Part shown: piece by piece, positions 12,272 to 50,403 of the stretch | How positions within the stretch are numbered: the first letter of the stretch is position 1 | Layout of the letters: each line of letters opens with the position of its first letter | NCBI GenBank assembly: GCA_937903605.1 | Contig: CALCZC010000007.1 | Location: 124,459-188,458 of the forward strand | From: an uncultured bacterium | Lineage (GTDB): Bacteria > Patescibacteriota > Patescibacteriia > Magasanikbacterales > GWA2-37-8 | Direction of reading: 5' to 3' | DNA length: 64,000 nt | Position numbers and translations under genes: made by a program | Notes under the pieces: model-generated | Database searches by the model: none | Told to the model about the DNA's origin: nothing | Seen by the model: only the letters and a program-made list of their open reading frames with translations

Positions 12272-12344
12272 GCGCCCATAGCTCAGTGGTTAGAGCACTG
12301 CCCTTATAAGGCAGGGGTCGATGGTTCAAGTCCATCTGGGCGCA
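12272..12344 (+). tRNA. tRNA with anticodon UAU (reads AUA, Ile). Cloverleaf is intact and CCA is not encoded.
   Basis: Acceptor gcgccca/tgggcgc, D-stem gctc/gagc, anticodon stem ctgcc/ggcag with loop cttataa, T-arm gatgg-ttcaagt-ccatc, discriminator a. Confidence 0.75.
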
Positions 12345-12437
12345 CGACAAATTTGTATTTTCTGCGAATGGCGCGAATATATCATCTACGCTCGAAGAAA
12401 ATAAAAATAAATTTTTGCTTTACTTCTCGCTTGATGA

Positions 12438-14618: not shown

Positions 14619-14671
14619 GTTGAAAGTATAAAGTTGAAAGTTAAAAGTTATAGGATTTTTAAAAATAAACT

Positions 14672-14706
14672 AAAAAAGTTTCCTTTTTCAAAGGAAACTT
14701 TTTTAA
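14672..14706. terminator. Bidirectional terminator between rplS (+) and uvrA (-), embedded in a larger inverted repeat of gttgaaagt units
   Basis: aaaaaagtttcctttttcaaaggaaacttttttaa. Confidence 0.75.
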
Positions 14707-14759
14707 TATATAAATCTAGAAAACATCTAACTTTCTACTTTCTACTTTTGACTTTACAC

Positions 14760-17579
14760 TTACTTCAAATACTTCCCTGTCCAGCTTCTTTTATTTTTTA
14801 TAACATCTTGCACAGTTCCCGCCACGACCAATTCACCGCCTTTTTTTCCACCCTCTGGACCAAGTTCGATAACCCAATCTGAATTTTTGATAACATCCAA
14901 GTTGTGTTCAATTATCAAAACAGAATTCCCCTTTTCAACCAATTGTTTTAAAACCAGGAGCAGACGTTTAACATCTTCAAAGTGTAACCCAGTAGTCGGT
15001 TCGTCTAAAATATACAGGGTTTTTCCGGTAGAGGCCCGGGATAACTCTGTGGCTAATTTTATTCTTTGAGCCTCACCGCCAGAAAGTGTGGTGGCCGGTT
15101 GACCGAGTTCCAAATAACCCAACCCTACCTGACGTAAAACATTCAATTTGTCGGCAATTTGTCTTTGATCCACAAAAAATTTATACGCTTCTTCTATAGT
15201 CATTTTCAGAACTTCGGCAATGTTTTTACCATGATAATGAATATCCAGAGCTTCTTGGTTGTAACGAGAACCGTTGCAGTCGTTACATACTACAAAAACA
15301 TCGGCTAAAAATTGCATCGGGATACGAATATAGCCTTCGCCAGCACAAGTTTCACAACGACCGCCACCTTTAACGTTAAAACTAAATTTTCCAGCATCAT
15401 AACGACGCATTCGGCTTTCCGGTAAAGAAGCATAAAGATCACGAATAAGTGTAAAGACTCCTGTATAAGTTGCCGGATTACTGCGTGGTGTGCGACCAAT
15501 CGGACTTTGATCAATAGCAATAACTTTATCAATATTATCAACACCTTTTATTTCTTTATGAATTCCGGGTTCGTCTTTGGCACGATAAAAATATTTGGAT
15601 AAATATTTTCCCAAAATATCCACTATCAAGGTTGATTTACCCGAACCTGAAACACCGGTGACGCAAACCAATTTGGAAAGAGGAATTTCAACATTGATAT
15701 TTTTCAAATTAAAACCTTGAGCGCCGATAATGCTGATATTTTTCTGTTTTTCTTTTTTATTTTCTTTTTTCTTGCGTAAATCATCTTCAAAGTCATCTGA
15801 AACATCGGCTTTACCAAAAAGATAATCGGCGGTCAGAGAGTTTTTTGCTTTTTTTATTTCCGCCAAAGTTCCGGCCGCAATTATTTGTCCACCGTAAATA
15901 CCCGCTCCCGGACCAACATCTATCAAATAGTCGGCTTCTTTCATAATAGCCGCATCGTGCTCAACCACAATCACAGTATTGCCTAAATCTCTCAAATATT
16001 TCAGAGTGTCTATCAATTTTTGATTATCCCGGGAATGTAAGCCGACAGACGGTTCATCCAAAACGTAAATCACTCCGGTTAAACCCGAAGAAAGCTGAGT
16101 GGCCAATCTGACACGGGTCGCTTCTCCACCGGAAACCGTATTCATCGAACGTGTCAAACTCAAATAATCCAACCCAACTCGAGATAAGTTTTCTAATCTA
16201 ACCAAAATTTCTTTTACTACCGGCTCTATAATGTATTTTTTGGTTAAACCGTTTTTCTTGATTAAATTTCTAAAAAATACAATGCTGTCTTCAATATTCA
16301 TCTCGGATAATTGAGCAATATTAAAACCTTCAAATTTGACGGCTAACGAATCTTTTTTTAGTTTTCTACCAAAACATAGAGAACAAATCTGTTCTCTCAT
16401 ATATTGTTCTATTTCTTTTCGAATATAATCGGAATCGGTTTGCAAATGACGTTGACGTAAATCTTCTAAAACACCTGGGAAATTAATTTTTTTACCTTCT
16501 ATTTCATAAATCTCTTTTCCGGTCCCTTTCAAAATAATATCCATTGTCTTGGAAGACAGAGAAGATACTGGAATTTCAACAGAAAAACCATGTTTGTCAG
16601 CTACAGCCTTAAGTATTTTTTGATAATAACTTTGATTACCGGTGATACGCGTCCAAGGCTGTATTGCTCCTTCCAAGAGCGAAAGTCGCGGATTTGGTAT
16701 GACCAAAGCCGGATCAACTTCCATGGTAATACCAAGGCCCGTACAACGCGGACAAGCACCAAACGGACTGTTAAAGCTAAAATTACGGATATCTAGATCG
16801 GGCATTATCCTACCGCATTTCAAACAAAGTCCAGAAGTAGAAAAAAATTTATCTTCTTTGTCCGTACCAACATAAAGTAATCCATTGCTCAAATCAAGGG
16901 CTGTCTCCACCCACTTGGTCGGGTCTTGTTTTTTGATGTCATTTATTTTTCCGATAAGTAATTCTACTTGGTATTTTTTTTTCGGATCAAAAGCCAAAGC
17001 GGCTAATTCGTTTATTTTAATTACTTTTCCATTTACCCGCACATGGTCATATCCTGATTGTTCCACTTTTTCCAACAAAACTCTTGATTGTTCAACCGCT
17101 TCATTGCGTACCAAAGGAGATAAAATCAAAATTTCTTTATTTTTTCTACCTAAATCGCGGACTTGTTCCACAATCTCACCGGTGGTATAAGAAACAACTT
17201 CTTCTTCACATTCAGAGCAATATTGTTTTCCGGCTCGAGCAAAAAGCAAACGCAAAAAATCATAAATCTCCGTCACCGTACCGACGGTAGAACGAGGATT
17301 TTGGGTATTGATGCGTTGATCAATAGCAATAGTTGGTGACAAACCTTCTATTCCATCAATGTCGGGTTTGTCGCGAACTTCCATAAACTGACGCGCATAA
17401 GCAGATAGACTTTCCGCATAACGACGTTGACCTTCGGCATAAATAGTATCAAAAGCCAAACTGGACTTTCCCGAACCGGACAGACCGGTGATAACTACCA
17501 ATTTATTTTTCGGGATATTTATTGAAATGTTTTTGAGATTATGTACTCGAGCTCCTTTGATTTTAAGCATTTCCGGCAT
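14760..17579 (-). CDS. uvrA: Excinuclease ABC subunit A
   Basis: 939 aa with two ABC ATPase modules ([24 protein letters not shown]) and zinc-finger Cys clusters. Confidence 0.95.
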
Positions 17580-17596: not shown

Positions 17597-19171
17597 TTAA
17601 TCACCTAAATGTTGGACATAAGTACCACCATCACAATAATAAACACCTGTTTCATTTGGCTGACGAAAACCAGTTTTAAAATTATTTTTAATAAATAAAC
17701 TCGTTAGGCTTTCATCTCCTTTGCAAACCCCTTGTTTTCCTTCAACAGGATAACTATTCTCGATACCTACACCCTGATAAAGACCAAGAAAACCATACAT
17801 AGCTTTCAGATCGGTTGTTTGATCAATCTTATATTCTAAACATGACCCATTGCTTCTTACAAAAGTATAACATCCTTTATAAAACCCTTGACTTTCGCAG
17901 TCTAAATTATTACTACAGGCGCCTCCACTCTGTGTTCCGCCTGTTCCACAAAAACCTATTGTAGAGGCCACTCTTACACATTTTAGAGGACTATTGCAGT
18001 TTGTATCTTCAACACAAGAAGATCCTGAGTTGCCATCGGTACATGCACTTAAATTACTAGCAACAGGGCGACACAAACAAGTGGCGCTAGTTTGTCTACA
18101 AGCAGCACAGTTACTATCGTCGTTACAAACCGCATTTAGCTTACCACTACTGCAAATACCTAAATCAGACCCTGTCCAACAACTTAAACCTGTAGTTGCA
18201 GGAACAACTAAACAAGCGAGTCCTTCAGCACATTTGGATTTTTTCCCGGTCGGATCGCAAAAAGAACCGGCAGACGCACTCTGATTCCCGATAACACAAA
18301 CACCCACTGGGGAAGTTTCAAGAAATTTATCTTGAGCATAAAGATAACCACCTATTTTTGCTACCGCGACTAATTTTCCACCAGACAATAATAAATTACC
18401 CACAACCGCTCCACCTGGAATAGGGGTTGCTAACACAGCTACATTGGCAGCAAGTTGTATAGAATTTCTAACTAATTTAGCACAAGGCCCCTCTAAACCG
18501 TCTGCTCCCAGTGCTTGGCAATAAGCATTTGGATTATTGTAATGAGCCTGACATTTACCATTTTCTTTTTCTCCTCCTTTTGGATCGCAACTAGCCAAAT
18601 TTTCCGAAGATACTGGTACTTCTCTTATCAGATATATTTGAGGTAAACGCAAATTTATTGTGTTTGGATTTATCATGTTTAAAATAGTATAGGACATGTA
18701 AGCCAAAGCTAGACCAATAATCGCTCCGGAAATTTTCTTTTTGGCACTACTTATCATTTCTTGACTACCAGCTGATCCTACATATTGTATGCCAGCTACA
18801 ATAATCATTATTGACGATAATATTGCCAAAATTACCAAAGCATAATTATAAATGGTTTTGATGTAATAACCAATATTGGAAAATTTAGCATTTCCACCAA
18901 AAGAAACTTGTGTTATTGTCGCTCCACCAGCCAAACATTTTCCCCATTTATAACTATCATTATTTTCTCTATCCTTTAAATAGCCGGGGCAAATTTCTGG
19001 ATCTAATACAAAAGCATCTTTATTGGCCCTATAATCTACACAATCTTTTTGAAGCCAACAAAGGGGATTTTTTTCCGGTGGTGTATCATCAGACCAAACA
19101 GTTTCTGAAAACAAAAAAACTCCCGACAAAAAAAGAGTTAGAAAAGAAACCAAAATTATTTTTTTATTCAT
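17597..19171 (-). CDS. Secreted/membrane Cys-rich protein: signal peptide, a small Cys-containing N-domain, two adjacent TM helices, then a ~350-aa extracytoplasmic domain of repeated C-x3-5-[DN]-C-x5-8-C modules
   Basis: 524 aa with at least 40 Cys. Repeated motifs include [59 protein letters not shown] and [18 protein letters not shown]. Confidence 0.7.
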
Positions 19172-19183
19172 ATCCCTAAAAAA

Positions 19184-19927
19184 TTAAGGGTTTAAAATGG
19201 AAGAAATCATATCCTCCCAACTATTTAAAGGTATATCACCTTGTATTTTATAACCATTTATAAAAAAGGTTGGGGTACCCATTACGCCATATTTATAACC
19301 TGTGGCGTAATCAAGATTAATCTCAATTTTAGTTTTATCTGAAATCAAACAAGAATTAAATTGTATACTGTCAGCACCAATATAATTAATAAAACTATTA
19401 ATAGTTTCAGCGGTTAAATTTTGTGTCAATTCATCTTGATGGGAAAAAATATAGTCATGAGCCAGCCAATAAAGTCCCTGTTCATGGGCACAATGTGCCA
19501 TTTCCGAAATTTTTGAGGCTCCCGGGTGCAATGATTCTATTGGAAAATTTCTCACTATAAATTTAATTCTTTGACCGTATTTATCAATTATTTGACGAAT
19601 GACAGGATCTTGTTGTTTACAAACCGGACATTTAAAATCAATAAATTCTACAATTACTATTTCCGCCTCAGAATTTCCCAAAAAAGGCCTATCTTTTTTT
19701 TCCAATTCTTCTCTGGTAGCCATAATCTGTAAATCTGATTGTTGATTGCCAAAAATCATTTTGCGCAATTCATCTCCATAGCCTTGTTTGATCAAACTCT
19801 GATAACGCCAAGTCAAAAGACCGATAGCTATAGAAAGAGAAACCAAAAGACAAGCAACAACTATAATTGTGACCCCCCACCACTGTTTATACCAGCTTTT
19901 TTTAGCTAAAAATTGGAAATTTTCCAT
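19184..19927 (-). CDS. DsbA-family thiol:disulfide oxidoreductase (membrane-anchored thioredoxin fold)
   Basis: N-terminal TM, active site FKCPVCKQ (CPVC), and a thioredoxin-like C-terminal part ...GVMGTPTFFINGYKIQG. It lies 12 bp downstream of the Cys-rich protein gene on the same strand. Confidence 0.8.
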   Translation of the reverse strand: MENFQFLAKKSWYKQWWGVTIIVVACLLVSLSIAIGLLTWRYQSLIKQGYGDELRKMIFGNQQSDLQIMATREELEKKDRPFLGNSEAEIVIVEFIDFKCPVCKQQDPVIRQIIDKYGQRIKFIVRNFPIESLHPGASKISEMAHCAHEQGLYWLAHDYIFSHQDELTQNLTAETINSFINYIGADSIQFNSCLISDKTKIEINLDYATGYKYGVMGTPTFFINGYKIQGDIPLNSWEDMISSILNP

Positions 19928-20046
19928 AAAAAATACTATGGTTTTATCCTACCACGAAATTCCAAACTAATCAAGAGTGACAAAGCAATACATCAGATTT
20001 TTCATTTTAGCTTAAAAAAGCTTAAAATTAACGATCGTCTTGATTA

Positions 20047-20075
20047 TTGACATAACCATCCTTTTGTGTTATAAT
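20047..20075 (+). promoter_or_regulatory. Consensus sigma70 promoter (TTGACA-17-TATAAT) for secG
   Basis: ttgacataaccatccttttgtgttataat. Confidence 0.6.
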
Positions 20076-20104
20076 TTCCAAAGACATTAAACTTCTTAAT
20101 TTTT

Positions 20105-25643: not shown

Positions 25644-27062
25644 ATGAAGCGTTTCGAACTTTTTTTTACCTTTCTCCAGCTTCCTATTGATTATCTTATG
25701 ATAGTTTTGGCCGGATTTTCCGCCTATAGTCTTCGTTATACCGAATTTATCAAAAGCATTCGCCCGATAATGTTTGATCTGACTTGGCACACTTATTGGC
25801 CTATAGTTCTTCTGGTTGCCGGAGTTTGGATAATCATCTTTGCTTTTTCCGGACTTTATCATGCCGATCCCAATCGTCGCTTACTCAAAGACATTAATCG
25901 CATCTTCTTTGCCTGCGCCACCGGATTTGCCGGTATCACAATCTATGTATTTTTTACTTTGCAAAAATTTGATTCTCGTTTTCTGGTTTTGATGGGATGG
26001 ATTTTGGCGGTTGTTTATGTGATTTTTGCTCGTGCCATTATTCGCGGTCTAAAAATATTTTTATACAGTCGCGGTTTTGGTTTACGCAAAACCGTGATTA
26101 TAGGAGCTCAAAATATCGCTCTTCGCTTAATGGAAAATATAAATAATCAACCGATGCTTGGTTATAAACTGGTCGGTAATTTTGAAACTTTTAATGAAGA
26201 AATTGCCAATAAAATAAAAAATCTCAAACCTGATGATATTATTTTTGCCGATCCTAAGGCCAATCAAGAAGAAGCTCTCTCAGCCATAGATTTTGCCAAC
26301 GAACACCATCTATCTTTCAAATATTCCGCTGATCTACTTGATACCATTACCTCCAACATTTCACTTAGTACAATTGACGACATACCGATTATTGAACTTC
26401 GTCGAACCAGACTAAATGTCTGGGGTAGAATTTTCAAACGAATTTTGGATATTATTGGTAGTTTGATTTTAATAATAATTTTTTCTCCAATTTATCTAGT
26501 TGTTTCTTTGATAATACTCATAGAAACCGGGCGACCGATAATTTATAAAAACGAAAGAGTCGGACAAAAAGGAATTTTATTTTTTACTTACAAATTTCGT
26601 TCCATGTATCAGAAATATTGCACCGGCAAACAGTTTGGCTCTCAAGGTCAAGAAGCTTTGGAAAAAGAAAAAGAACTGATAAAAGAATTGAACACCAAAA
26701 AAGGCCCGGTTTACAAAATAGAAAACGATCCGCGTGTCACACCTTTTGGCCGTTTTATCCGTCGCTGGAGTTTGGATGAATTTCCTCAATTTTTCAATGT
26801 TTTTATCGGCAATATGAGCTTAGTCGGACCTCGTCCGCACCAACCGCGCGAAGTGGAAAAATATAAAAAACATCACAAAATAGTTTTGGCTATCAAACCT
26901 GGCATTACCGGTCTGGCACAAATTTCCGGACGCAGCGACCTGAGTTTTGAAGACGAAATCAAACTGGATACTTTTTATATTGAAAACTGGAGGTTGCTGC
27001 TAGACTTTATTATTCTAATTAAAACACCCTTTGTAGTTTTGAGTCGCAAGGGAGCGAAATAA
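25644..27062 (+). CDS. Polyprenyl-phosphate glycosylphosphotransferase (WbaP/CpsE-type initiating sugar transferase)
   Basis: N-terminal TMs plus a C-terminal bacterial sugar transferase domain ...PIIYKNERVGQKGILFFTYKFRSM...LDEFPQFFNVFIGNMSLVGPRPHQP... Confidence 0.85.
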   Translation: MKRFELFFTFLQLPIDYLMIVLAGFSAYSLRYTEFIKSIRPIMFDLTWHTYWPIVLLVAGVWIIIFAFSGLYHADPNRRLLKDINRIFFACATGFAGITIYVFFTLQKFDSRFLVLMGWILAVVYVIFARAIIRGLKIFLYSRGFGLRKTVIIGAQNIALRLMENINNQPMLGYKLVGNFETFNEEIANKIKNLKPDDIIFADPKANQEEALSAIDFANEHHLSFKYSADLLDTITSNISLSTIDDIPIIELRRTRLNVWGRIFKRILDIIGSLILIIIFSPIYLVVSLIILIETGRPIIYKNERVGQKGILFFTYKFRSMYQKYCTGKQFGSQGQEALEKEKELIKELNTKKGPVYKIENDPRVTPFGRFIRRWSLDEFPQFFNVFIGNMSLVGPRPHQPREVEKYKKHHKIVLAIKPGITGLAQISGRSDLSFEDEIKLDTFYIENWRLLLDFIILIKTPFVVLSRKGAK

Positions 27063-27110
27063 AAAAATTTTAGATTTAAGATTTTTGATTTTAGATTACG
27101 AACAAAGACC

Positions 27111-27207
27111 GTCATCCTGATCCTGCCTAGGCGGAGAAGGATCCCTTAAACAAGGCTTTAAGAAATAAGTTAAACTATACGGGATTCTTCGTTTCACTCA
27201 GAATGAC
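27111..27207. repeat. MITE-like element, family A, third copy
   Basis: gtcatcctgatcctgcctaggcggagaaggatcccttaaacaagg...cactcagaatgac. Confidence 0.8.
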
Positions 27208-27234
27208 GAGCTGTTCATCGGATTATAATATTTT

Positions 27235-28353
27235 ATGAACATCGCATTAGTCCATGATTATTTAGCGCAAGACGGGGGCGCAGAAAAAGTTTTGAAAGCC
27301 CTCCACGAAATTTGGCCGGAGGCGCCAATTTTTGTTTTATTTCATGATGAAAAAAAACTAGAGCAATTTAAAAAAGAACAAGTTAAAGAAAGTTTTTTGA
27401 AAAACTTTCCTTTTATTCACTCTCATTATCAATGGTATCTGCCTTTTATGCCAATAGCGATAGAACGATTGGATCTAAAAAATTTTGATTTGGTAATTTC
27501 CAGCACTTCTCTCTTTGCCAAAGGAGTAATAACAACCCCGTCCACTCTACACATTTCTTATTGTCACACTCCTCCTCGATTTTTGTGGTCAGATACTCAT
27601 AAGTATCTCAGTGATTTTCGTTATAATTTTTTTATAAAACTTTTTTCTCCCAATTTTATTCATCGCTTACGTTTGTGGGATAAAATGAGTGCTGACCGTG
27701 TGGATGAGTTTATCGCCAATTCTTTTACTGTCGCCAAACGTATTCAAAAATTTTACCGCCGTGAAGCAACCATTATTAATCCACCGGTGGAAACAGAAAA
27801 ATTCAAAATTTCTCCTACTCTTGGTGATTATTATCTTTGCGGGGGCAGATTGGTGCCTTACAAAAAAATAGATTTGGTCATCAAGGTCTTTAATCGCCTG
27901 GGAAAACCCTTAAAAATATTTGGTGACGGACCTGAATTAAAACATTTAAAAAAGGTAGCTAAATCAAATATTGAATTCCTGGGTCGCATTACCGAAGATC
28001 AAAAAACAGATTTGATGAGTAAAGCCTTGGCTTTTATCAACCCTCAATTGGAGGATTTTGGCATTACCGCGATAGAAAGCATGGCTGCCGGAAGACCGGT
28101 CATAGCTTATGGTGTTGGTGGGGCGGGAGAAACTGTTATCGATGGTGAAACCGGCATTCTTATTAAAAACCAGACTTGGGAAAGTCTTTTTGACACCATT
28201 TTAAATTTTCATCCCGAAAATTGGGACAGTGCCAGGATTCGTGCACATGCGGAAAAATTTAGTGAAGAAATTTTTAAAGAAAAAATGCAACGATTTGTGA
28301 CTGATAAGTATGAGGAATTTAAGAAAGGACTCATCCAAAATAAACTATTTTAA
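27235..28353 (+). CDS. GT4-family glycosyltransferase
   Basis: MNIALVHDYLAQDGGAEKVL... plus the C-terminal EDFGITAIESMAAGRPVIA motif. Confidence 0.8.
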   Translation: MNIALVHDYLAQDGGAEKVLKALHEIWPEAPIFVLFHDEKKLEQFKKEQVKESFLKNFPFIHSHYQWYLPFMPIAIERLDLKNFDLVISSTSLFAKGVITTPSTLHISYCHTPPRFLWSDTHKYLSDFRYNFFIKLFSPNFIHRLRLWDKMSADRVDEFIANSFTVAKRIQKFYRREATIINPPVETEKFKISPTLGDYYLCGGRLVPYKKIDLVIKVFNRLGKPLKIFGDGPELKHLKKVAKSNIEFLGRITEDQKTDLMSKALAFINPQLEDFGITAIESMAAGRPVIAYGVGGAGETVIDGETGILIKNQTWESLFDTILNFHPENWDSARIRAHAEKFSEEIFKEKMQRFVTDKYEEFKKGLIQNKLF

Positions 28354-28361
28354 AATTACCT

Positions 28362-29492
28362 ATGAATATAGGTGTTGATATCCGCCCGCTCCTGTCCCCT
28401 GTTCGTACCGGAGTCGGCGAATATACATTTGAGCTTCTCAACGCAATATTCCAAATTGATAAACAAAATCAATATTTTTTATTTTATAATTCTTATAAAG
28501 ACTTGGATAAATATTTACCAAGCTGGAAATACGAAAATGTCCGTTTTATAAAAAAAAATTGGTCAAACAAGCTTTTCAATTTTTGCCAAAAATTTCTAAA
28601 CTGGCCAAAAATAGATCTTTTTGTAGCCAAAGAATTCTCTTTGGAAAAACTGGATTATTTTTTTTCTCCTAATCTAAATTTTACTGCTTTGAGTAAAAAA
28701 CCCAAGAAAATTCTAACTATCCACGATCTCTCTTTTGATTTTTTTCCAGAATATCTTTCTTTTAAACAAAAACTTTGGCACCTCTTTATCAACCCTAAAA
28801 AGCAATGTTTTGGCGCCGACATAATACTGGCCCCGAGCAAAAACACCAAAAGAGATCTAATAGATTTTTATAATCTGTCTGAAAACAAAATCCGCACAAT
28901 TTATCCGGGGCTTTCTTCTATTTTTCAAAATATCACTGAAAACAAAAAAAATTTGAATTTGCCGGACAATTATATTTTATTTTTGGGAGCTCTCGAACCT
29001 CGCAAAAATATCCTAGGAGTTATTGAAGCTTATGAAAAAGCTTTTACTCGCTTATCTCTCCCGTATCATTTGGTAATTGCCGGCGCACCTGGATGGAAAA
29101 ATAAAGAAATCTTTGAAAAAATAGAGGGTTCTCCGTTAAAACAAAAAATAACTTTCATCGGTTATGTGAAAAACGAAGATAAACCGGAACTTTATCGTCG
29201 AGCGAGTATTTTTGTTTATCCTTCATTTTATGAGGGTTTTGGTTTTCCTGTTTTAGAAGCTATGTATTGTCATGTTCCAGTCATAACAAGCAATGTATCC
29301 TCTCTGGTAGAAATAACTTCAAAAAACGCTTACTTGGTAGATCCTAATAAACCGGAGCAGATATCTGACGGCTTAATCAAAATACTTAATAAACAAAATA
29401 TAAAAAATAATTTAATATCAAAAGCTAAAATCCGATCTGAAAAATTTTCTTGGAGCTCATCAGCAAAAGATTTTTTGAATATTTTAAAATAA
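28362..29492 (+). CDS. GT4-family glycosyltransferase
   Basis: ...YVKNEDKPELYRRASIFVYPSFYEGFGFPVLEAMYCHVPVITSN... Confidence 0.8.
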   Translation: MNIGVDIRPLLSPVRTGVGEYTFELLNAIFQIDKQNQYFLFYNSYKDLDKYLPSWKYENVRFIKKNWSNKLFNFCQKFLNWPKIDLFVAKEFSLEKLDYFFSPNLNFTALSKKPKKILTIHDLSFDFFPEYLSFKQKLWHLFINPKKQCFGADIILAPSKNTKRDLIDFYNLSENKIRTIYPGLSSIFQNITENKKNLNLPDNYILFLGALEPRKNILGVIEAYEKAFTRLSLPYHLVIAGAPGWKNKEIFEKIEGSPLKQKITFIGYVKNEDKPELYRRASIFVYPSFYEGFGFPVLEAMYCHVPVITSNVSSLVEITSKNAYLVDPNKPEQISDGLIKILNKQNIKNNLISKAKIRSEKFSWSSSAKDFLNILK

Positions 29493-29526
29493 AATAAGAC
29501 CCTTGGTAAAGGGTCTTTGTTTTTAG
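29492..29526. terminator. Bidirectional terminator
   Basis: aaaataagacccttggtaaagggtctttgtttttag. Confidence 0.75.
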
Positions 29527-29537
29527 TAGCTACAAGG

Positions 29538-29768
29538 CTACATTTCTTTTATGACAAAACCTTCCATTATTTTGTCTTCTTCTTTGCTATTGACCGGTTC
29601 CTGGCTGATGACTCCGCATGTTTTACAATTCATTTTCCTCCACAATGTCCCCACACACATAGCATAATAGGCTACATGGGGAACGGGTTTTTTTTCTTTA
29701 CCACTGCATTGACCGCAAATACGATCAACTTCTTCAGTTTCCTTTTTCTTCAAAAGAGGTTTGGTCAT
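29538..29768 (-). CDS. Small zinc-ribbon protein (76 aa), antisense-embedded between glycosyltransferase genes. It belongs to the same C-x2-C...W-[NR]...C-x2-C family as 43279 and 43618.
   Basis: MTKPLLKKKETEEVDRICGQCSGKEKKPVPHVAYYAMCVGTLWRKMNCKTCGV... The start is set at the internal Met of the 176-aa track ORF because that ORF overlaps the GT start. A strong SD (ttggaggcgccaATG) and a canonical promoter at 29821-29849 support this start. Confidence 0.5.
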   Translation of the reverse strand: MTKPLLKKKETEEVDRICGQCSGKEKKPVPHVAYYAMCVGTLWRKMNCKTCGVISQEPVNSKEEDKIMEGFVIKEM

Positions 29769-29820
29769 TGGCGCCTCCAAAGACAGGTTGGGTGATTTGT
29801 CGAAAGAACAAGAAGAAACT

Positions 29821-29849
29821 ATTTTATCCCTCTTTTTTTTGTTTGTCAA
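29821..29849 (-). promoter_or_regulatory. Consensus sigma70 promoter (TTGACA-17-TAAAAT) driving the antisense zinc-ribbon gene
   Basis: Minus strand reads ttgacaaacaaaaaaaagagggataaaat. Confidence 0.55.
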
Positions 29850-29917
29850 ATTTATCCAATCAATCAATTCGGAAAAAACTTGGCTTAACCAAAAATTTAC
29901 ATTATACTTAAAACAAT

Positions 29918-31093
29918 ATGAAAATAGGGATAGATGCGCGCCTATACGGTCCAAAACAGGGCGGCTTAGGACGATATCTACAACAATTGATAGAAGGACT
30001 AGAAAAAACGGATTTGCAAAACGATTACGTAGTTTTTTTGCGTCAAGAAAATTTTTTCGCCTATACACCCGTCAATCCTCGTTTCAAAAAGGCACTGGCC
30101 GATATCCCATGGTATGGCTGGCAAGAGCAAATTTTACTGCCTAGAATTTTGAAAAAAGAAAATTGTGATTTTGTCCATTTTCCCCACTGGAATATCCCTG
30201 TTTTTTATAACAAAAAATTTATAGTCACCATTCACGATCTAATTTTGTTCCATTATCCAAGTCGCCAATCCAGCACCTTGGGACCGTTGAAATATTTTTT
30301 TAAAAATCTCGCCTATAGATTTATTTTGCGTCATGCGGTTAAAAAAGCCACTCAAATAATAACCCCAAGTAATTTTACCAAACAGGATGTAACTAAAAAC
30401 CTACACGTTCCGGAAGAAAAAATCACCGTAACATATCTTGCCCCTGTCTTAAAAAATAATATCCAATATCCAACCTTGCCTACCGGCAGGCAGGTATCCA
30501 ATACTAACAACCAACAAAATAATGATAAAAACCAAAAAATCCTTCAAAAACATGGGATAACCAAAAATTACCTGTTATATGTCGGTGTTGCTTATCCTCA
30601 CAAAAACCTGGAACGTCTGGTTAGAGCTTGGAAAATGTTTGAGAAACAAAACAAAAATTTTCAACTTGTTCTGGTTGGCAAAAAAAATTATTTTTACGAT
30701 CGCTTGATAAATTCCGAAATTTTCAAAAGTTGTAAAGATGTCATTTTTACCGATTTTATTCTTGATGAGAATCTAGTTGATATTTACAAAAACTCCAGCG
30801 CTTATATTTTTCCGTCTTTATACGAAGGTTTCGGACTACCGCCGCTTGAAGCTATGCAATATGGCATCCCGGTTATTTCTTCAAATAAAACCTGTCTCCC
30901 AGAAATTTTGGGAGATGTCGCTTTATATTTTGAGCCGCAAAATGAACAAGATATTTGTTCAAAAATCAATCTTATTTTAACCGATTCAGATACACGCCAA
31001 AAACTTATCAACAACATACCGGATATTTTGTCTAAATATAGCCAAAAAAATACCGCTGAAACTACTTTATCGGTTTATAAAAAAATGGTATAA
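29918..31093 (+). CDS. GT4-family glycosyltransferase carrying an in-frame palindromic-repeat insertion
   Basis: MKIGIDARLYGPKQGGLGRY... and ...SLYEGFGLPPLEAMQYGIPVISSN. The insert YPTLPTGRQVSNTNNQQNNDKNQ is encoded partly by accttgcctaccggcaggcaggt (30473-30495). Confidence 0.8.
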   Translation: MKIGIDARLYGPKQGGLGRYLQQLIEGLEKTDLQNDYVVFLRQENFFAYTPVNPRFKKALADIPWYGWQEQILLPRILKKENCDFVHFPHWNIPVFYNKKFIVTIHDLILFHYPSRQSSTLGPLKYFFKNLAYRFILRHAVKKATQIITPSNFTKQDVTKNLHVPEEKITVTYLAPVLKNNIQYPTLPTGRQVSNTNNQQNNDKNQKILQKHGITKNYLLYVGVAYPHKNLERLVRAWKMFEKQNKNFQLVLVGKKNYFYDRLINSEIFKSCKDVIFTDFILDENLVDIYKNSSAYIFPSLYEGFGLPPLEAMQYGIPVISSNKTCLPEILGDVALYFEPQNEQDICSKINLILTDSDTRQKLINNIPDILSKYSQKNTAETTLSVYKKMV

Positions 31094-31168
31094 TAAATAA
31101 AATAATAAATTCAAAATCACAAATCCCAAATTTTGTGAATTTTTTTCGGATTTCAAAAAATTTTAGTC

Positions 31169-33751
31169 ATGAAAGATAAAAAAAGAATTCAACTTCGACG
31201 TTGCCACTTTTGCAACAAACCCGGACACAACAAAGCCACTTGCCCGGAATTTTTGGCTTTGCAAAAAAATACTAAAACTCAACCTCTTCAAAAAATAGAC
31301 AGAAAAGTTCGCATTTTTTACCATCCACCGGAACAAAAAAATTCCGATACTGTTTCCGTCCATTTACTCAATCTCAAAAAACAAAACAGTTATTGGCAAA
31401 AAACCGAAACCGCTTCTCCTGAAAATATTACTAATGAATGGGAAAAATTTTATGAAGACATAAAAAAAGAGAAACAAATTCCGGTTTATAAACCAGAAGA
31501 AGTGTTTATTTTACCAAAAAAAGAAAGATTGGTAGTGGCGGACAAACAAACAGAGGTGACAGACAAACAAACAAAAGAAAAAAACAAAGAGGAGCTCCTT
31601 AGTTTTGAAAAATTTATTGACGAAATAAAAAAAGAAAATAGTAAAAAATACCTGCAAAAAATACAAAAAATAAAATTACCCAAAAAAGAAACTACAAAAA
31701 AAGAAGTTAGTTATAATTTTCAATCTTTATTCTATTTTCCTTCACTAGAAAAAATAAATTGGCGAAAATCTTTATCCACAGCGATGATTGTTTTGACAAT
31801 TTTGGCCTTGCCTTTACAAACAAAAACTTTTTATAAAAATATTAAAGTTAGTACCGATAAAATAACCGCCAATAGTACCGAAGGATTTATGGCTTTGCAA
31901 GATTCTACCGCTGCTATTATAACTGCTGATTTGCCAAATGCCCAATATTCCATAACCGAAGCTTTAAACAAGTTTAACGAGGCTATCGAAGAAATCCAGG
32001 ATCATAAAATTTTACAAGCTATCGCTAAAAATGTGCCTTTGATTAAAAACGAAGTTCAAAGTCGTCAAAATATAGTCATGGCGGGACAAAAAATAGCTCT
32101 TGGTAACACGTATCTTATAAAAGGAATTACAGAAGCTAACAACACTGAATTATCGCCTTTGGATAGACTTAACACTCTCACAGAACATCTCAAATTTGCC
32201 GTACCCAACTACGAGCAAGCTTTTGATGATCTAGAGGGGGTTGATTTAAAAGTGTTGCCTTTTGAATATCAAGCACCTTTTAAGGATTTTAAATTTATTT
32301 TTAGCGGATTGCTTTATGATCTAAAAAATATTGCTGAGATTAGCCGAAATATCAATGAAATTTTTGGTGGTCACGGATCACGTCGTTATCTTTTAGTTTT
32401 TCAAAACGAAGCGGAATTACGTCCAACCGGCGGTTTTTTGGGTAGTTTCGCCGTTATGGAAATCAAAGATGGTAATATAACAAACTTAGAAATTCCCCCT
32501 GGCGGTTCTTATGATTTACAAGGTCAGCTTTCTGTATTAATCGAACCCCCTACGCCTTTGCTTTTATCCAATAAAAAATGGGAGTTTCAAGACGCTAACT
32601 GGTTCCCCGATTTTAAAACTTCAGCTGAAAAAATGCTTTGGTTTTATCGTCATAGTCGCAACATAACTCTTGATGGGGTTATAGCTATAAACTCTTCTGT
32701 TTTGACTAGGTTATTATCTTTAATCGGACCGATTTCAGACGAACAAAGAAACTTAGTTTTAAATGAAAAAAATATTTTATTTTCTTTACAAAAAGTGGTA
32801 GAGGAGGGAGAAGAAAAAGAACTAAACAAACCAAAACAAATATTATCGGATATTGGACCGCAAATTTTATCGTCTCTATTATCTTTACGTCCGGAAAATA
32901 CTCTACCCTTACTTTTTAACCTCAATGAAGCTTTGACTCAAAAAGAAATTCAGGCTTATTTTACCAGCCCTTCTACCCAAAAGGCTGTAGAATCTTTTAA
33001 TTGGGCGGGTAAAATTATACAAACCCCTGATGATCGAGATTACCTAATGGTTGTAAACACCAATATTCAAGGACAAAAAAGCGATTCTCAAATAAAACAA
33101 AGGATTCAACATCAGGCCCTTGTCCAAGAAGATGGTACGGTGCTCAATAGTGTGACTATCACCAAAACACACGAGGGTCAAGCGGGACAAAAATTTTACG
33201 GTCAAACAAATATTGATTATATCCGTATCTATGTTCCGGAAGGTTCACAGCTGATTTCCGCCCAAGGATTTACTTGGCCGGATGAAAAATATTTCCGCGC
33301 TCCGATCAAAGGCGCGACAAAAGATGAAGATTTGAAAAATATTGAACAGGAAATGGGTTTTGATGAAGCTTCCGGCACTAGAATTACCAATGAATTTGGA
33401 AAAACCGCTTTTGGAAATTGGCTTATCACCGAACCCGGATCTGTAAATACGGTACAATTTATCTACCGTTTACCTTTTCGTGTTTTCTCTCCGGAAAAAA
33501 ATCCAAACAAAAATAATATTTTTACTTCTATCTTAAATTCCGATAAAACTGTTTCTCAATACCAACTATTGGTTCAGAGACAGTCCGGGAGTCGCAGTAC
33601 TTTCGAATCTCAAGTGGTTTATCCGGCCGGTTTTGAATCTGTATGGAGTGATGGTGAAAATAGCAACTTGGCTCTAAATGGACATTTTGTCACGGAATCG
33701 CCGCTAAAAAAGGACAAAATTTGGAGTTTGATAATGGAAAAAAATAATTAA
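31169..33751 (+). CDS. Large membrane protein with an N-terminal CCHC zinc knuckle (CHFCNKPGHNKATC), a Lys/Glu-rich linker, one TM and a ~650-aa extracytoplasmic domain (DUF4012-like?)
   Basis: 860 aa with C-x2-C-x4-H-x4-C at residues 12-25 and TM AMIVLTILALPL. The conserved block is LLVFQNEAELRPTGGFLGSFAVMEIKDGNIT. Confidence 0.65.
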   Translation: MKDKKRIQLRRCHFCNKPGHNKATCPEFLALQKNTKTQPLQKIDRKVRIFYHPPEQKNSDTVSVHLLNLKKQNSYWQKTETASPENITNEWEKFYEDIKKEKQIPVYKPEEVFILPKKERLVVADKQTEVTDKQTKEKNKEELLSFEKFIDEIKKENSKKYLQKIQKIKLPKKETTKKEVSYNFQSLFYFPSLEKINWRKSLSTAMIVLTILALPLQTKTFYKNIKVSTDKITANSTEGFMALQDSTAAIITADLPNAQYSITEALNKFNEAIEEIQDHKILQAIAKNVPLIKNEVQSRQNIVMAGQKIALGNTYLIKGITEANNTELSPLDRLNTLTEHLKFAVPNYEQAFDDLEGVDLKVLPFEYQAPFKDFKFIFSGLLYDLKNIAEISRNINEIFGGHGSRRYLLVFQNEAELRPTGGFLGSFAVMEIKDGNITNLEIPPGGSYDLQGQLSVLIEPPTPLLLSNKKWEFQDANWFPDFKTSAEKMLWFYRHSRNITLDGVIAINSSVLTRLLSLIGPISDEQRNLVLNEKNILFSLQKVVEEGEEKELNKPKQILSDIGPQILSSLLSLRPENTLPLLFNLNEALTQKEIQAYFTSPSTQKAVESFNWAGKIIQTPDDRDYLMVVNTNIQGQKSDSQIKQRIQHQALVQEDGTVLNSVTITKTHEGQAGQKFYGQTNIDYIRIYVPEGSQLISAQGFTWPDEKYFRAPIKGATKDEDLKNIEQEMGFDEASGTRITNEFGKTAFGNWLITEPGSVNTVQFIYRLPFRVFSPEKNPNKNNIFTSILNSDKTVSQYQLLVQRQSGSRSTFESQVVYPAGFESVWSDGENSNLALNGHFVTESPLKKDKIWSLIMEKNN

Positions 33752-33761
33752 ATTTATAATT

Positions 33762-35654
33762 ATGCCGGAGAAAAAAAATATCCTTGCTGCTTCTCGTCCC
33801 CAAAGAAAAAAACCGGATTATTTTGATAAAGAAATAGGTTCAGACAAACAAAAAGAAATAGCGGATAAAATCGCAAAAATTTATACCGACCAAGACGGTA
33901 AAATTCCGGAAATGCATAAAATAAAACTCAAGAACAAAAATCCCCTCCTCCGATTTGCCGTCTTTCTTCTCTTTTTAACTTCTTTGATGGCTTTTTTTTC
34001 TTGGGCTGGATTTCTTTATTTTCCACAAGGAGAAAAATTTTCCGAAGAAAAAATAAGTTTAATTATAGACGGACCTTCGCAAGTACAATTGGGCGGAACT
34101 AGTACTTATAAAATCATAATAAAAAATAACTTAAACGTTCCGTTAGAAAAAATGACGCTTAACACCAATTATCCGGACGGATTTGTCTTTTTACAAAGTG
34201 ATAAACCGGCGCAAAACCTGGGAAATACTGAATGGTCATTGCCGGATTTGGACGGTTTAAGTGAAGCAGAATTGATTATTACCGGAAAAACTTATGGTTC
34301 TTTGGAACAACAAGGCTCTTGGCGAGTTTTTCTTTCTTATCAACCAAGCAGTCTCAATTCCCAAATGCAAAAAATAGCAACCCTAAACACTCAGGTTTCT
34401 TTGACCCCATTTGTTCTCACCGCCAAAACTCCGGAAAAAGTGGCTTATGGTACTGAAACAGAAATTATTTATACTTTGGAAAATAAAAATGGTTATCTAC
34501 CAGAAAAAATGTATTTATCTTTGAAAATGCCGGAAAAGTTTTCTATTACTTCAAGTAGCCCGGCTCTGGATAAAGAAAACCGCTGGATCATAACCCCCAG
34601 CAGTACCGATTATTTCCCAAAAAATTTCAAAGTTAGCGGTCGTTTTACCGGAGAATTGGAAACACAAGAAACAATACAGGCTTTCTTGGAACTACCTATT
34701 TTGGCTGCTCGTCAAACCTATACTATCGGACAAATTGAAAATAAAATTTCTCTTTCAAGAACTGCTTATTTAATGGCTATGGCTGTCAATGGTAGTATAA
34801 GTGACTTAAGTGTTAAACCTGGAGATCCTTTGAACATTACTTTTAATTTTAAAAACGCCGGAAAAGAATCTTTAAAAAATGCTATTATTAAAATGAGGTT
34901 TGATGCCCCTTCTTATAATAAAAGTAGTATTTTGGATTGGTCAGAGCTCTCCGATATATTAGACGGTACCATTGTTGGTAAACAAGTAAGTGATACTATC
35001 CGTAACGGAACCATCACCTGGGATAAAAATAAATTAAAAGACTTAGCTGAAATAAAAACCAATCAAGAAGTGAATATGGATTTACGTCTTCCCATAAAAG
35101 ACAGTGGTAAAATATCACTCTCTGAATTAAAAGAATATGAAATTTCCATTTTGACTGAAATTTCTTTTGTTGATGAAAATAAAAATCAAAAAACTATTGC
35201 CGGTAGTCCTATAAAATTAACTCTTAATTCTGATTTTAGTTTTGAGAAAAGAGTTGTTGTAGCCCAAAACAACAACGGTAAAGATCAGCGAGATTTCACT
35301 TGGATTTTAAAAAATACTTTTCACCCGCTAAAAAATATAGAACTTTCCGCCGAGATCTACGGCGATGTTACTTTAACAACATCTACCATTCCGGCTGGCA
35401 AAATAACTTACGATTCTACAGAAAAAATCATCACTTGGACTATCGATGAAATGCCTGAAAATCTAGATATTTTGGCCTTACCGTTTACTTTGACAGTTAA
35501 CAAAAAGAATCCCACCCAACAAGTTCTTTTGTCTAAAATCAAAATTAAAGCTGAAGACACTGTTACCTCACAATTGATAACTTTCATGGGAAGCGAGACT
35601 CTCCTTTTTGAAGAAAAAATAGAAGAAGAGGAAGAAGATCCTTTTGCCAGATAA
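33762..35654 (+). CDS. Large N-in membrane-anchored surface protein of unknown function (630 aa, beta-rich C-terminal region)
   Basis: Cytoplasmic N-terminal ~60 aa, TM LLRFAVFLLFLTSLMAFFSWAGFLYF, then a long extracytoplasmic region. It starts 11 bp after the previous gene. Confidence 0.6.
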   Translation: MPEKKNILAASRPQRKKPDYFDKEIGSDKQKEIADKIAKIYTDQDGKIPEMHKIKLKNKNPLLRFAVFLLFLTSLMAFFSWAGFLYFPQGEKFSEEKISLIIDGPSQVQLGGTSTYKIIIKNNLNVPLEKMTLNTNYPDGFVFLQSDKPAQNLGNTEWSLPDLDGLSEAELIITGKTYGSLEQQGSWRVFLSYQPSSLNSQMQKIATLNTQVSLTPFVLTAKTPEKVAYGTETEIIYTLENKNGYLPEKMYLSLKMPEKFSITSSSPALDKENRWIITPSSTDYFPKNFKVSGRFTGELETQETIQAFLELPILAARQTYTIGQIENKISLSRTAYLMAMAVNGSISDLSVKPGDPLNITFNFKNAGKESLKNAIIKMRFDAPSYNKSSILDWSELSDILDGTIVGKQVSDTIRNGTITWDKNKLKDLAEIKTNQEVNMDLRLPIKDSGKISLSELKEYEISILTEISFVDENKNQKTIAGSPIKLTLNSDFSFEKRVVVAQNNNGKDQRDFTWILKNTFHPLKNIELSAEIYGDVTLTTSTIPAGKITYDSTEKIITWTIDEMPENLDILALPFTLTVNKKNPTQQVLLSKIKIKAEDTVTSQLITFMGSETLLFEEKIEEEEEDPFAR

Positions 35655-43278: not shown

Positions 43279-43506
43279 ATGAAAACACAAAAGCTGAACT
43301 TCTCTTTTAACAAGAAGGACAAGCAGGAGTCTTATTGCAAAAAATGCGGGATGCACACTACTCACCACACTGGACTGGCGTGGAATCATGATGCCGGTTT
43401 GTATCTGAGCGTTTTCCGCTGTGAAAAATGCAAAAAAACTCTTAAGAAAAAGATTGATTATGAATCTTTCAAAGAAGCAAAGACTCTCGCTGAGCTTCCT
43501 TCCTAA
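43279..43506 (+). CDS. Small zinc-ribbon protein (75 aa)
   Basis: Strong SD aaaaggagaatgaaATG. CKKCGMHTTHHTGLAWNHDAGLYLSVFRCEKCKKT. Terminator at 43504-43529. Confidence 0.6.
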   Translation: MKTQKLNFSFNKKDKQESYCKKCGMHTTHHTGLAWNHDAGLYLSVFRCEKCKKTLKKKIDYESFKEAKTLAELPS

Positions 43507-43545
43507 CCGCCCTCTGTGGGCGGTTTTTTAATATATTAGATATTC

Positions 43546-43574
43546 TTGACAATTTTATTTTTTTATTGTATAAT
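43546..43574 (+). promoter_or_regulatory. Consensus sigma70 promoter (TTGACA-17-TATAAT) for the second zinc-ribbon gene
   Basis: ttgacaattttatttttttattgtataat. Confidence 0.6.
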
Positions 43575-43617
43575 CTTCCTGGTCCTTTTTTATAAAATAT
43601 TTTTCCGGGAGGAAAAA

Positions 43618-43857
43618 ATGCACAACAACAATGAATATCGTTATCCACCGTCTGCTTCTTATCAAAGTCTCGGGGTAATAAAAAAATTCTGCAAAGGCCG
43701 TTGCCAGATGGAAACAGATCATTTTGAAGGTGTTTCTTGGAACAAGGGTGTTAGCGAAAGAAAGATAACCTGTGTTGTCTGTCAACGCATAGAAACAGAG
43801 AATATATCTTGGGAAAAGTGCATACAGTTGGCTCCCAGAGCCGCTTTGGACACATAA
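43618..43857 (+). CDS. Small zinc-ribbon protein (79 aa), a paralog of the 43279 gene
   Basis: SD gggaggaaaaaATG. CKGRCQMETDHFEGVSWNKGVSERKITCVVCQRIE has the same C..C-x-[ME]T-x-H-x-G-[LV]-[AS]-WN...C-x2-C pattern. The ORF-track start at 43546 lies inside the promoter, so the start is reset to 43618. Confidence 0.6.
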   Translation: MHNNNEYRYPPSASYQSLGVIKKFCKGRCQMETDHFEGVSWNKGVSERKITCVVCQRIETENISWEKCIQLAPRAALDT

Positions 43858-48570: not shown

Positions 48571-48572
48571 TT

Positions 48573-50276: not shown

Positions 50277-50320
50277 AAAGTAGTCACAAATCTATAAAAA
50301 TGGTATAATGGACTTAATCA

Positions 50321-50398
50321 AAAGTACTGAATATTGAATATTGAATATTGTTTTTATTTTACACAATATTTAATATCTAATATTCAATATTTAATTTT
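50321..50398. repeat. AT-rich inverted-repeat array (aatattgaatatt family)
   Basis: tactgaatattgaatattgaatattg...caatatttaatatctaatattcaatatttaa. Confidence 0.6.
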
Positions 50399-50403
50399 TA
50401 CTT

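Follow-up and report, generated by a model that had tools for sequence, protein, structure and literature searches.

Why does a Patescibacterial genome keep a thioredoxin-fold gene directly in front of a gene for a pilin-like protein that is exceptionally rich in cysteine, and what might the two products do together? The question is raised by positions 17597-19927 of a 64,000-nucleotide stretch of DNA, hereafter the window, from an uncultured bacterium of the Magasanikbacterales (contig CALCZC010000007.1, positions 124,459 to 188,458). These positions are exactly filled by two co-oriented minus-strand open reading frames (ORFs). We propose, at what we judge to be an even chance, that their products form an enzyme-client pair, in which a protein resembling MdbA and BdbD makes or rearranges some 15 disulfides of a modular VirB2-type pilin whose core docks or self-assembles and whose variable domain is displayed. 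A preliminary description of the locus had seen in it a disulfide-rich secreted protein with a dedicated oxidoreductase, and had placed the organism among the bacteria of the Candidate Phyla Radiation (CPR), in agreement with the name Candidatus Magasanikbacteria that homologues carry.

Gene order and linkage across genomes

Read 5′ to 3′ on the minus strand, the order in the window is thioredoxin-fold gene, pilin, uvrA, and the cluster is made up as follows.

19927->19184, minus strand: oxidoreductase gene, first gene of the cluster, 247 amino acids (Pfam domains, PDB relatives, linkage)
19171->17597, minus strand: pilin gene, second gene, 524 amino acids, a modular VirB2-like protein (PF18895) with a putative disulfide-rich ectodomain
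14760..17579, minus strand: uvrA, third co-oriented gene, 17 bp past the pilin stop, a conserved neighbour
14669..14707, minus strand: terminator-like hairpin beyond uvrA (consensus scan)
19928..20104, no strand assigned: intergenic region from which the oxidoreductase gene and secG diverge (sigma-70 consensus matches)

A gap of 12 bp separates the oxidoreductase stop from the pilin start, and an AGGGA Shine-Dalgarno-like sequence precedes the pilin. The preliminary description was right that the two genes adjoin on one strand and wrong in calling the DsbA-like gene downstream of the cysteine-rich one, as both genes lie on the minus strand and the DsbA-like gene is the upstream (5′) one. No terminator-like site separates the three genes in a consensus scan, and the transcript probably has its 3′ end at the hairpin at 14669-14707. 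The probable promoter region for the cluster is 19928-20104, in which a perfect sigma-70 consensus lies on the plus strand (for secG) and only a weak 9/12 match on the minus strand; the exact promoter is not placed with confidence. The thioredoxin-fold gene, the pilin and uvrA are probably co-transcribed, which for uvrA implies no functional link with the pair. A DNA-repair gene is apparently in one transcription unit with a surface-protein pair.

The order thioredoxin-fold gene, pilin, uvrA is found in 6 of 6 homologue contigs. A metagenome scan with profile A2, the 40-sequence profile A5 being too diverse, gave 80 pilin loci, and the thioredoxin-fold gene lies directly upstream in 75 of the 75 that are informative, the other five being contig ends that cut off the upstream DNA. 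When the enzyme was used for the search, in one genome per GTDB species, 80 loci were again obtained, and a pilin of this family follows immediately downstream in 13, all from Magasanikbacteria, Uhrbacteria or unclassified Patescibacteria and one of them (L032) with two tandem pilins. The remaining enzyme homologues, from other Patescibacteria, archaea and diverse bacteria, have no such pilin neighbour, and those of other Patescibacteria include some next to VKOR (L044, L051, L060) and some next to a second DsbA and Lgt (L022, L023, L025). DsbA-like genes are common without the partner, yet the orthologous clade is always paired, and the co-occurrence suggested by the preliminary description stands. 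The third gene is placed just as regularly, with uvrA 3-25 bp past the pilin in the homologue contigs and no more than about 400 bp past it in nearly all other loci with enough sequence (among L001-L170). Since uvrA is equally constant and the housekeeping block is syntenic, adjacency alone is weak functional evidence. The adjacency of enzyme and pilin is kept despite an altered upstream flank (L009, L011, L012) and after pilin duplication.

Two observations concern the loci themselves. At L105:3483-4880 the pilin is split into ORFs of 106 and 355 residues, which is likely a frameshift, a pseudogene or an assembly error. Six loci titled 'uncultured Gammaproteobacteria' (L011, L012, L020, L021, L031, L037) have a gene content near that of Patescibacteria, so that the labels are probably wrong; two of them, L011 and L012, have the Magasanikbacteria-type cluster in full.

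The pilin-like protein, its cysteines and their conservation

The 524-residue protein is divided along its length as follows.

19091..19171, minus strand: Sec-type signal peptide, about residues 1-27, with the likely cleavage site ...TVWS|DD (hydropathy and sequence)
18872..19090, minus strand: N-terminal ectodomain, residues 28-100, with Cys 38, 44, 61 and 79 (alignments, AlphaFold2)
18668..18871, minus strand: pilin helical hairpin, residues 101-168, two transmembrane (TM) helices and a predicted Lys-rich cytoplasmic loop (Pfam, NCBIfam, AlphaFold2)
18299..18667, minus strand: post-hairpin segment, residues 169-291, a four-cysteine cluster (195, 207, 218, 230) and then a Gly/Ala/Val-rich linker
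18317-18469, minus strand: the Gly/Ala/Val-rich hydrophobic linker itself, about residues 235-285, with very low model confidence
17840..18298, minus strand: Cys-rich module region, residues 292-444, 20 cysteines, with AlphaFold2 confidence low to moderate (cysteine positions, alignment)
17600..17839, minus strand: C-terminal tail, residues 445-524, with Cys 483 and 513, poorly conserved

The first half of this architecture agrees with the preliminary description, which had named a signal peptide (a signal-peptide-like hydrophobic stretch is found at residues 2-25 in the hydropathy scan), a small cysteine-containing ectodomain (C38, C44, C61, C79) and two closely spaced TM helices, on which the hydropathy scan (about residues 104-135 and 149-167) and AlphaFold2 (100-132 and 137-166) agree. 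The four cysteines of the N-terminal domain are predicted to form two disulfides; they are invariant in alignments A1 and A2 and present in at least 90% of the 40-sequence alignment A5, and exactly four occur in this domain in 60 of 79 non-redundant family members. AlphaFold2 models the domain as a small alpha/beta fold, with a predicted local distance difference test score (pLDDT) of 83-91 at residues 31-80 and 66-67 at residues 81-100, within a full-length model whose mean pLDDT is 58. The loop between the helices is rich in lysine (SAKKKISG), and a conserved NP..NLRLPQ exit motif follows immediately past the hairpin. The signal peptide, together with the Lys-rich loop of the hairpin, is predicted to place both cysteine-bearing domains outside the cell.

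The likeness to VirB2/TrbC-type pilins that had been noted for the hairpin is upheld in part. The Pfam family T4SS_pilin (PF18895) matches residues 104-166 over profile positions 9-70 of 71 (E 8.7e-6, 26.2 bits), five of six tested relatives score above its threshold at 30.2-37.9 bits, precomputed matches to it exist on 24 of 30 homologues, and several homologues are named 'pilin [Candidatus Magasanikbacteria]' by their sources. The NCBIfam model Mbov_0395, of the pilin-like protein of a Mycoplasma integrative conjugative element, also matches, under its cut-off (E 7.7e-5). The part that does not stand is the classical one, as PF04956 (VirB2/TrbC/TraA) is not listed for the window protein at E <= 1 and no similarity to solved pilins is seen. 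Judged by sequence family, the hairpin belongs, at family level, to the VirB2-like pilins of CPR bacteria (PF18895).

What sets the protein apart is its cysteine content. Cysteine accounts for 30 of its 524 residues, or 5.7%, compared with 0.71% for the remaining ORFs of the window (binomial p 7e-18), and 26 of the 30 lie past the hairpin in a C-terminal ectodomain of 345 residues. Other exported or membrane proteins of the window have 0-4 cysteines each, which makes the pilin the sole cysteine-rich exported protein there. The preliminary description had overstated both the number and the repetition, giving more than 40 cysteines where 30 are counted and at least eight modules of the form C-x3-5-[DN]-C-x5-8-C where that motif is present twice. 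By eye there are about four tandem four-cysteine modules (residues 305-331, 349-377, 386-408 and 419-444), of the form C-x5-8-C-x5-9-C-x9-11-C and each after x-[DS]-G-x3-5-[GS]-x2. An Uhrbacteria relative (L028), with 48 cysteines and about eight modules, does fit the earlier numbers, unlike the window protein.

Neither the window protein nor five relatives had a Pfam or NCBIfam match in the C-terminal region. A word-indexed search with the 40-sequence profile A5 added no proteins to the known homologues. An exhaustive phmmer search with residues 180-524 against 1.84 billion representatives gave seven matches, six with the identical architecture; the seventh, P0031 (2,240 amino acids, 23 stretches), was rejected as a repeat protein that aligns only to the Gly/Ala/Val-rich linker. 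That linker (about residues 235-285) scores close to the TM cut-off in some homologues, and P0005-P0007 have an insert of about 100 residues in its place. A third TM helix at residues 244-262 was considered and rejected, as it is not conserved, being absent in P0004-P0007, with the insert in P0005-P0007. A separate model of residues 286-450 from an eight-sequence alignment reached a mean pLDDT of 56.8 and gave three Foldseek matches against the PDB at E of about 9, and a fold assignment of the cysteine-rich region is impossible from the models. Knottin, EGF-like, LDLa, Dickkopf-like and other small disulfide-rich domains gave no profile or fold match to the modules; for the knottin/EGF-like comparison advised in the preliminary description, Pfam, NCBIfam and Foldseek (with a low-confidence model) found no homology.

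The cysteines themselves are conserved in place and in parity. In an alignment of eight homologues (33-64% identity) nearly all cysteine columns are invariant against a mean column identity of 50%. Of 77 non-redundant complete family members, 72 have an even number of mature cysteines, counted from beyond the hydrophobic part of the signal peptide (p 3e-16); among the five with odd counts, two have a cysteine inside the signal peptide that the cut used for the count missed. The commonest count in the family is 12, four in the N-terminal domain and eight beyond, the maximum is 48 (L028), and the window protein stands at the rich end. The 524-residue protein has no CxxCH or other metal-site signature and no zinc-finger family above noise. 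The even parity and the near-invariant cysteine columns argue for disulfides, which probably form in the outer domains. An odd cysteine count in the pilins that could pair covalently with monothiol partners was looked for and not seen. Elsewhere in the window, adjoining plus-strand ORFs of 75 and 103 residues at 43279-43857, each with a CxxC...CxxC pattern and possibly paralogous zinc-ribbon proteins, were rejected as further DsbA clients on account of their zinc-ribbon-like spacing and the absence of a credible export signal; there is no Rfam match in that region.

Conservation is divided sharply between the core of the pilin and its ectodomain. Between the window proteins and the syntenic orthologues L004, L007 and L008, identity is 69-88% for UvrA, 36-70% for the thioredoxin-fold enzyme, 48-69% for the pilin core and 20-30% for the pilin ectodomain. 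Tandem duplicates of the pilin stand behind one thioredoxin-fold gene at L032:4440-7180, L103:3501-6507, L121:3501-6770 and L139:3-2855, and such paralogues within one genome share 63-92% of the core and 23-41% of the ectodomain (92% against 27% in L139), which suggests diversification or swapping of the ectodomain. The hypervariability of the ectodomain supports its reading as a contact surface, of which it would be expected. The conserved hairpin and NP..NLRLPQ motif exceed what a plain anchor needs and so argue for docking to conserved machinery or self-assembly.

The thioredoxin-fold partner and its active site

The partner matches Thioredoxin_4 (E 2.5e-23, 83.5 bits) and DSBA (E 2.1e-14, 54.2 bits), both over their cut-offs, and its nearest solved relatives are 3gyk, ScsC (4gxz), BdbD (3eu3, third-best) and the C. 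diphtheriae structures 4pwo/4pwp, which we take to be MdbA (the depositor's name is 'DsbA'). With the two features below, the preliminary description of a membrane-anchored thioredoxin-fold protein with a CPVC motif holds.

19802..19885, minus strand: TM anchor of the oxidoreductase, residues 15-42, single and N-terminal (hydropathy scan; conserved in orthologues)
19619..19630, minus strand: active-site CPVC, residues 100-103 (translation)

The anchor at residues 15-42 would hold the enzyme on the extracytoplasmic side. A GTPTFF loop is invariant in alignment A3 and its proline, probably in the cis conformation, is kept in every linked orthologue, with few flanking variants. The families of conjugative thioredoxin-fold proteins do not claim the window enzyme, as Pfam TraF reaches 17 bits against a cut-off of 23 and the NCBIfam TrbB models reach 14.5-15.6 bits against cut-offs of 132-199.

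Among about 95 pilin-linked enzymes the first active-site cysteine and an extra pair, C146/C193, are invariant, whereas the second active-site cysteine is not. CxxC is found in 56 (CPNC 21, CPYC 10, CPIC 9, CPVC 7, CPFC 7, CSNC 2; the seven CPVC take in the window copy plus L002/L003, other contigs with an identical pilin), and CxxS/T in 39, or about 40% (CPNS 13, CPYS 10, CPNT 8, CPYT 5, CSAS 1, CGYS 1, CVYS 1). The CxxS/T loci are L010, L014-L016, L018, L019, L028, L030, L038, L097, L100, L103, L104, L106, L108-L110, L112, L113, L117-L121, L123, L124, L127, L129, L132, L137, L143, L145, L148, L149, L152, L158, L159, L166 and L167. Those inspected have three cysteines each and no compensating one. 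A neighbour-joining tree built from 79 unique sequences requires, by parsimony, no fewer than 17 switches between CxxC and CxxS/T, and pairs that are 89-91% identical differ in the second cysteine (L112 and L013, L166 and L164). Sequencing error is excluded because entire clades carry serine or threonine. Of 76 DsbA-like ORFs at loci that lack the pilin, 74 have CxxC, one CPFS and one CPYG, so that CxxS/T stands at 39 of about 95 linked enzymes against 1 of 76 unlinked (Fisher's exact test, p 4e-11). A correlation between the retention of CxxC and the cysteine richness of the pilin was sought and rejected, as CxxS partners accompany pilins with 48 (L028) and 28 (L097) cysteines.

DsbA-type oxidases donate an active-site disulfide, and a protein with CxxS is unable to carry one. 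What it can do is attack disulfides and reshuffle them, or keep a client bound in a mixed disulfide, and the CxxS variants of PDI, Eug1p and ERp44 act in this way. With serine or threonine as the second residue of the pair in 39 of about 95, those partners cannot hold an active-site disulfide, and the wide spread of CxxS/T argues that the conserved chemistry is not simple DsbA-type oxidation. The function conserved across the family would be better described as that of an isomerase or covalent chaperone, and the CPVC copy of the window could additionally be an oxidase.

A metagenome-assembled genome (MAG) of Magasanikbacteria (UBA10197) carries, at L068:371-1713, a DsbA-like gene with CPFS beside lspA (signal peptidase II) and not beside a pilin, and the clade may carry more than one such enzyme.

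A proposed model, its alternatives and its setting

The model that we favour runs as follows. The cluster would be read as three genes, probably on one transcript, of which the first two encode the enzyme and its client. The 524-residue protein would be exported via Sec and its signal peptide cleaved, so that the pilin would stay in the cytoplasmic membrane by a VirB2-type hairpin whose Lys-rich loop lies on the inner side, with both the four-cysteine N-terminal domain and the 345-residue C-terminal ectodomain outside. About 15 intramolecular disulfides would stiffen the outer domains, and the membrane-anchored MdbA/BdbD-like partner, on the same side of the membrane, would form or reshuffle them on the emerging chain. 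As only the first active-site cysteine is indispensable across the family, the common step would be thiolate attack and a mixed disulfide, that is, isomerase or covalent-chaperone chemistry, to which the CPVC copy could add oxidase action. The conserved hairpin and N-terminal domain would then dock to conserved machinery, most likely a Patescibacterial VirB4-type system encoded elsewhere, or to each other, and the hypervariable disulfide-rich domain would be exposed, on a filament or at the surface of the cell, to bind a host or substrate or to set specificity for it. The enzyme-client relation, polymerisation and the adhesin role we infer, and the part of host-cell attachment factor, which the preliminary description had suggested, is one the protein might play; the pair is a plausible host-contact module. 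A bolder version, which we think rather unlikely, is that Magasanikbacteria and Uhrbacteria make an undescribed surface filament of VirB2-type hairpins with flagellin-like hypervariable, disulfide-knotted domains, which would be the 'missing adhesin' of the Patescibacterial type IV secretion system (T4SS) and set host specificity, with a partner that acts through one cysteine, as an isomerase or as a covalent chaperone of the pilin, and is no DsbA oxidase.

Several points weigh against this model. Characterised VirB2-type pilins are small, and we know of no precedent for a subunit with 345 extra residues. The window protein itself falls 0.4 bits below the gathering threshold of PF18895 (26.6 bits), the family profile shows no detectable similarity to solved pilins (0 matches to PDB sequences at E <= 1), the full-length model finds only generic helical hairpins in the PDB by Foldseek (E > 1), and the structure models of the ectodomain are of low confidence. 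The window contains none of virB4, virB6 and virD4, nor do the contigs of six relatives carry any of them within 8-10 kb of the pilin. CxxS/T partners occur even beside the most cysteine-rich pilins (L028, L097), which leaves the source of oxidising equivalents unaccounted for; no VKOR-like ORF is present in the window or at any pilin locus (for DsbB no dedicated model was used), and no second DsbA was seen in the window or at the pilin loci. Finally, the linkage of uvrA is as tight as that of the thioredoxin-fold gene and may partly be frozen synteny.

This last point has a stronger form, in which a general housekeeping MdbA merely sits beside the pilin and uvrA in a slowly rearranging block of the core genome and the adjacency is coincidental. 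It gains from the fact that uvrA, secG, an SBP_bac_5 gene, RNase J, rplS and gmk are likewise syntenic across loci, that MdbA-like proteins are general in CPR bacteria (PMC6744442) and that the window has no second DsbA. We consider it quite improbable, as the adjacency outlasts the change of upstream flank (L009, L011, L012), spans Magasanikbacteria and Uhrbacteria at 31-40% enzyme identity and is retained by duplicated pilins, which remain behind the same gene; the linked clade moreover has a distinctive active-site evolution that is lacking in unlinked homologues, and the Magasanikbacteria MAG of L068 has a DsbA-like gene elsewhere, although this MAG is a different one from those with a pilin-linked copy. 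That the cysteine-rich region is instead a metal-binding (zinc, iron-sulfur) or cytoplasmic domain and not a disulfide-bonded ectodomain we find scarcely credible. Taken alone, the high density of cysteines would fit metal clusters, and the disulfides are deduced from sequence, but the signal peptide and the hairpin with its Lys-rich loop set the domain outside, CxxCH motifs and zinc-finger families above noise are missing, the cysteine counts are biased to even numbers and the linkage to an extracytoplasmic thioredoxin-fold protein is constant.

The nature of the partner and of the filament leaves more room. The preliminary description took the partner for a dedicated DsbA-type oxidase that inserts disulfides into this one protein, and the CPVC motif, the cis-Pro loop and the DSBA-type domain of the window copy, the strict linkage, and the pilin's standing as the only cysteine-rich protein among those exported in the window all speak for it. 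The pairing survives from that view, but oxidation as its purpose is unlikely, given that CxxS/T without compensation is found in 39 of about 95 linked orthologues, some of them 89-91% identical to CxxC copies, and that neither VKOR nor DsbB is found in the window or at the pilin loci (DsbB without a dedicated model). A real possibility, although we lean away from it, is that the hairpin is only a membrane anchor and the protein a static receptor, adhesin or structural component of the envelope, monomeric or oligomeric, and still matured by the oxidoreductase. No T4SS gene is near at any inspected locus, the gene is usually single-copy and sits in a housekeeping syntenic block beside uvrA, secG and rplS, and the large N- and C-terminal domains differ from small VirB2 pilins, all of which would suit a static protein. 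Against this, the core, at 48-69% identity, is conserved to a degree comparable to or above that of the enzyme (36-70%) and more than an anchor needs, Pfam assigns the hairpin to a T4SS pilin family, and distance from the machinery is common, VirB4 being found in 2,417 of 3,035 Patescibacteria assemblies and VirB2-like pilins lying away from virB4 in 813 of 1,948 (PMC12102498). These likelihoods concern different parts of the claim and are not meant to add up to a whole.

Pairing an enzyme of the DsbA family with a specific pilin or fimbrial client has precedents in BdbD/BdbC with ComGC in Bacillus subtilis, SrgA with PefA in Salmonella and TcpG in the toxin-coregulated pilus (TCP) of Vibrio cholerae. 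Clients of this kind have one or few disulfides and belong to the type IV or chaperone-usher classes, and their enzymes keep CxxC. MdbA of Actinomyces oris and Corynebacterium diphtheriae is closer, as a membrane-anchored DsbA-like enzyme of a monoderm with exported pilin clients, features that here are probable; it is a general, unlinked, VKOR-recycled enzyme whose clients are sortase-assembled pilins (PMC5478893, PMC6744442), whereas the present gene is in a probable operon with one VirB2-type client and has no VKOR nearby. A CPR-enriched MdbA-like family (fam000318) has CxxC in 89% of its members and an adjacent VKOR in 88 of 750 genomes, and was proposed to fold type IV pilins (PMC6744442); the second active-site cysteine is missing in 41% of the enzymes described here, against 11% without CxxC for CPR overall (PMC6744442). 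TrbB (an isomerase/chaperone) and TraF (no CxxC) of the F-plasmid T4SS are likewise thioredoxin-fold proteins dedicated to a conjugative-type pilus, but they are soluble, periplasmic and DsbC/DsbG-like, come from a diderm, and have as clients cysteine-rich machinery proteins and not the pilin (PMC11315126).

On the side of the pilin, VirB2-like pilins were found in 1,948 Patescibacteria assemblies, near virB4 in 1,135, and pilin arrays occur, while no adhesin was identified in that survey (PMC12102498). The PF18895 pilins of the Ca. Southlakia epibionticum and Nanosynbacter lyticus arrays share with the present family a signal peptide, a two-helix hairpin and CPR hosts (PMC12102498), as well as occasional tandem duplication with fast divergence (here at L032, L103, L121 and L139). 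They are described as small and often beside virB4 (PMC12102498), whereas the present protein has a 75-residue N-terminal domain, a 345-residue C-terminal domain that is probably disulfide-rich and, invariably, a thioredoxin-fold gene before it; neither disulfides nor DsbA are mentioned in that survey (PMC12102498). A conserved polymerisation module with a variable exposed module is also the design of the modular type IV pilin PilB of Streptococcus sanguinis (PMC8179133) and of flagellin (PMC7018530), although these families and their assembly machines are unrelated and the analogy is one of design only. In the literature we found no paper that joins DsbA-like genes with VirB2-type pilins in Patescibacteria. 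The theme of a foldase with a pilin, including the proposal that an MdbA-like family folds CPR pilins (PMC6744442), is already known; what is new is a putative VirB2-type pilin of giant size, hypervariable and rich in disulfides, and a clade of partners in which the resolving cysteine has been lost again and again.

Under the favoured model, the general suggestion that CPR pilins are folded by MdbA-like enzymes (PMC6744442) would become a claim about one enzyme and one client that can be tested, and the cluster offers a concrete candidate for host recognition or attachment among CPR bacteria outside Saccharibacteria. All members of a sizeable clade have it, and the fixed place of the pilin between the thioredoxin-fold gene and uvrA allows it to be followed through metagenomes. 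The recurrent change from CxxC to CxxS/T is a natural experiment on oxidase against isomerase or chaperone function, in organisms that often lack quinone-linked re-oxidation.

The remainder of the window adds a few observations that are separate from the pair. A gene for a T2SSE-type ATPase, like those of type IV pilus systems or of type II secretion, lies at 48573-50276 within 47605-51552 (plus strand), with a multi-TM protein (47605-48570) on one side and a 382-residue single-TM protein without a Pfam match on the other; this pilus system is separate from the VirB2-like pilin. A tRNA-Ile with anticodon TAT (UAU) is encoded at 12272-12345 (plus strand). AUA is read in most bacteria by a lysidine-modified CAU tRNA. 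An integrase-core (rve, just under the Pfam threshold) and helix-turn-helix transposase-like gene at 56384-57280 (minus strand) suggests an insertion sequence amid the housekeeping region. A surface-polysaccharide or envelope cluster occupies 25644-35654 (plus strand), with a Bac_transf sugar transferase, GT4 glycosyltransferases at 27235-28353 and 28362-29492 (precomputed Pfam matches) and 29918-31093, an 860-residue DUF4012 protein and a 630-residue DUF11-like protein with zero cysteines.

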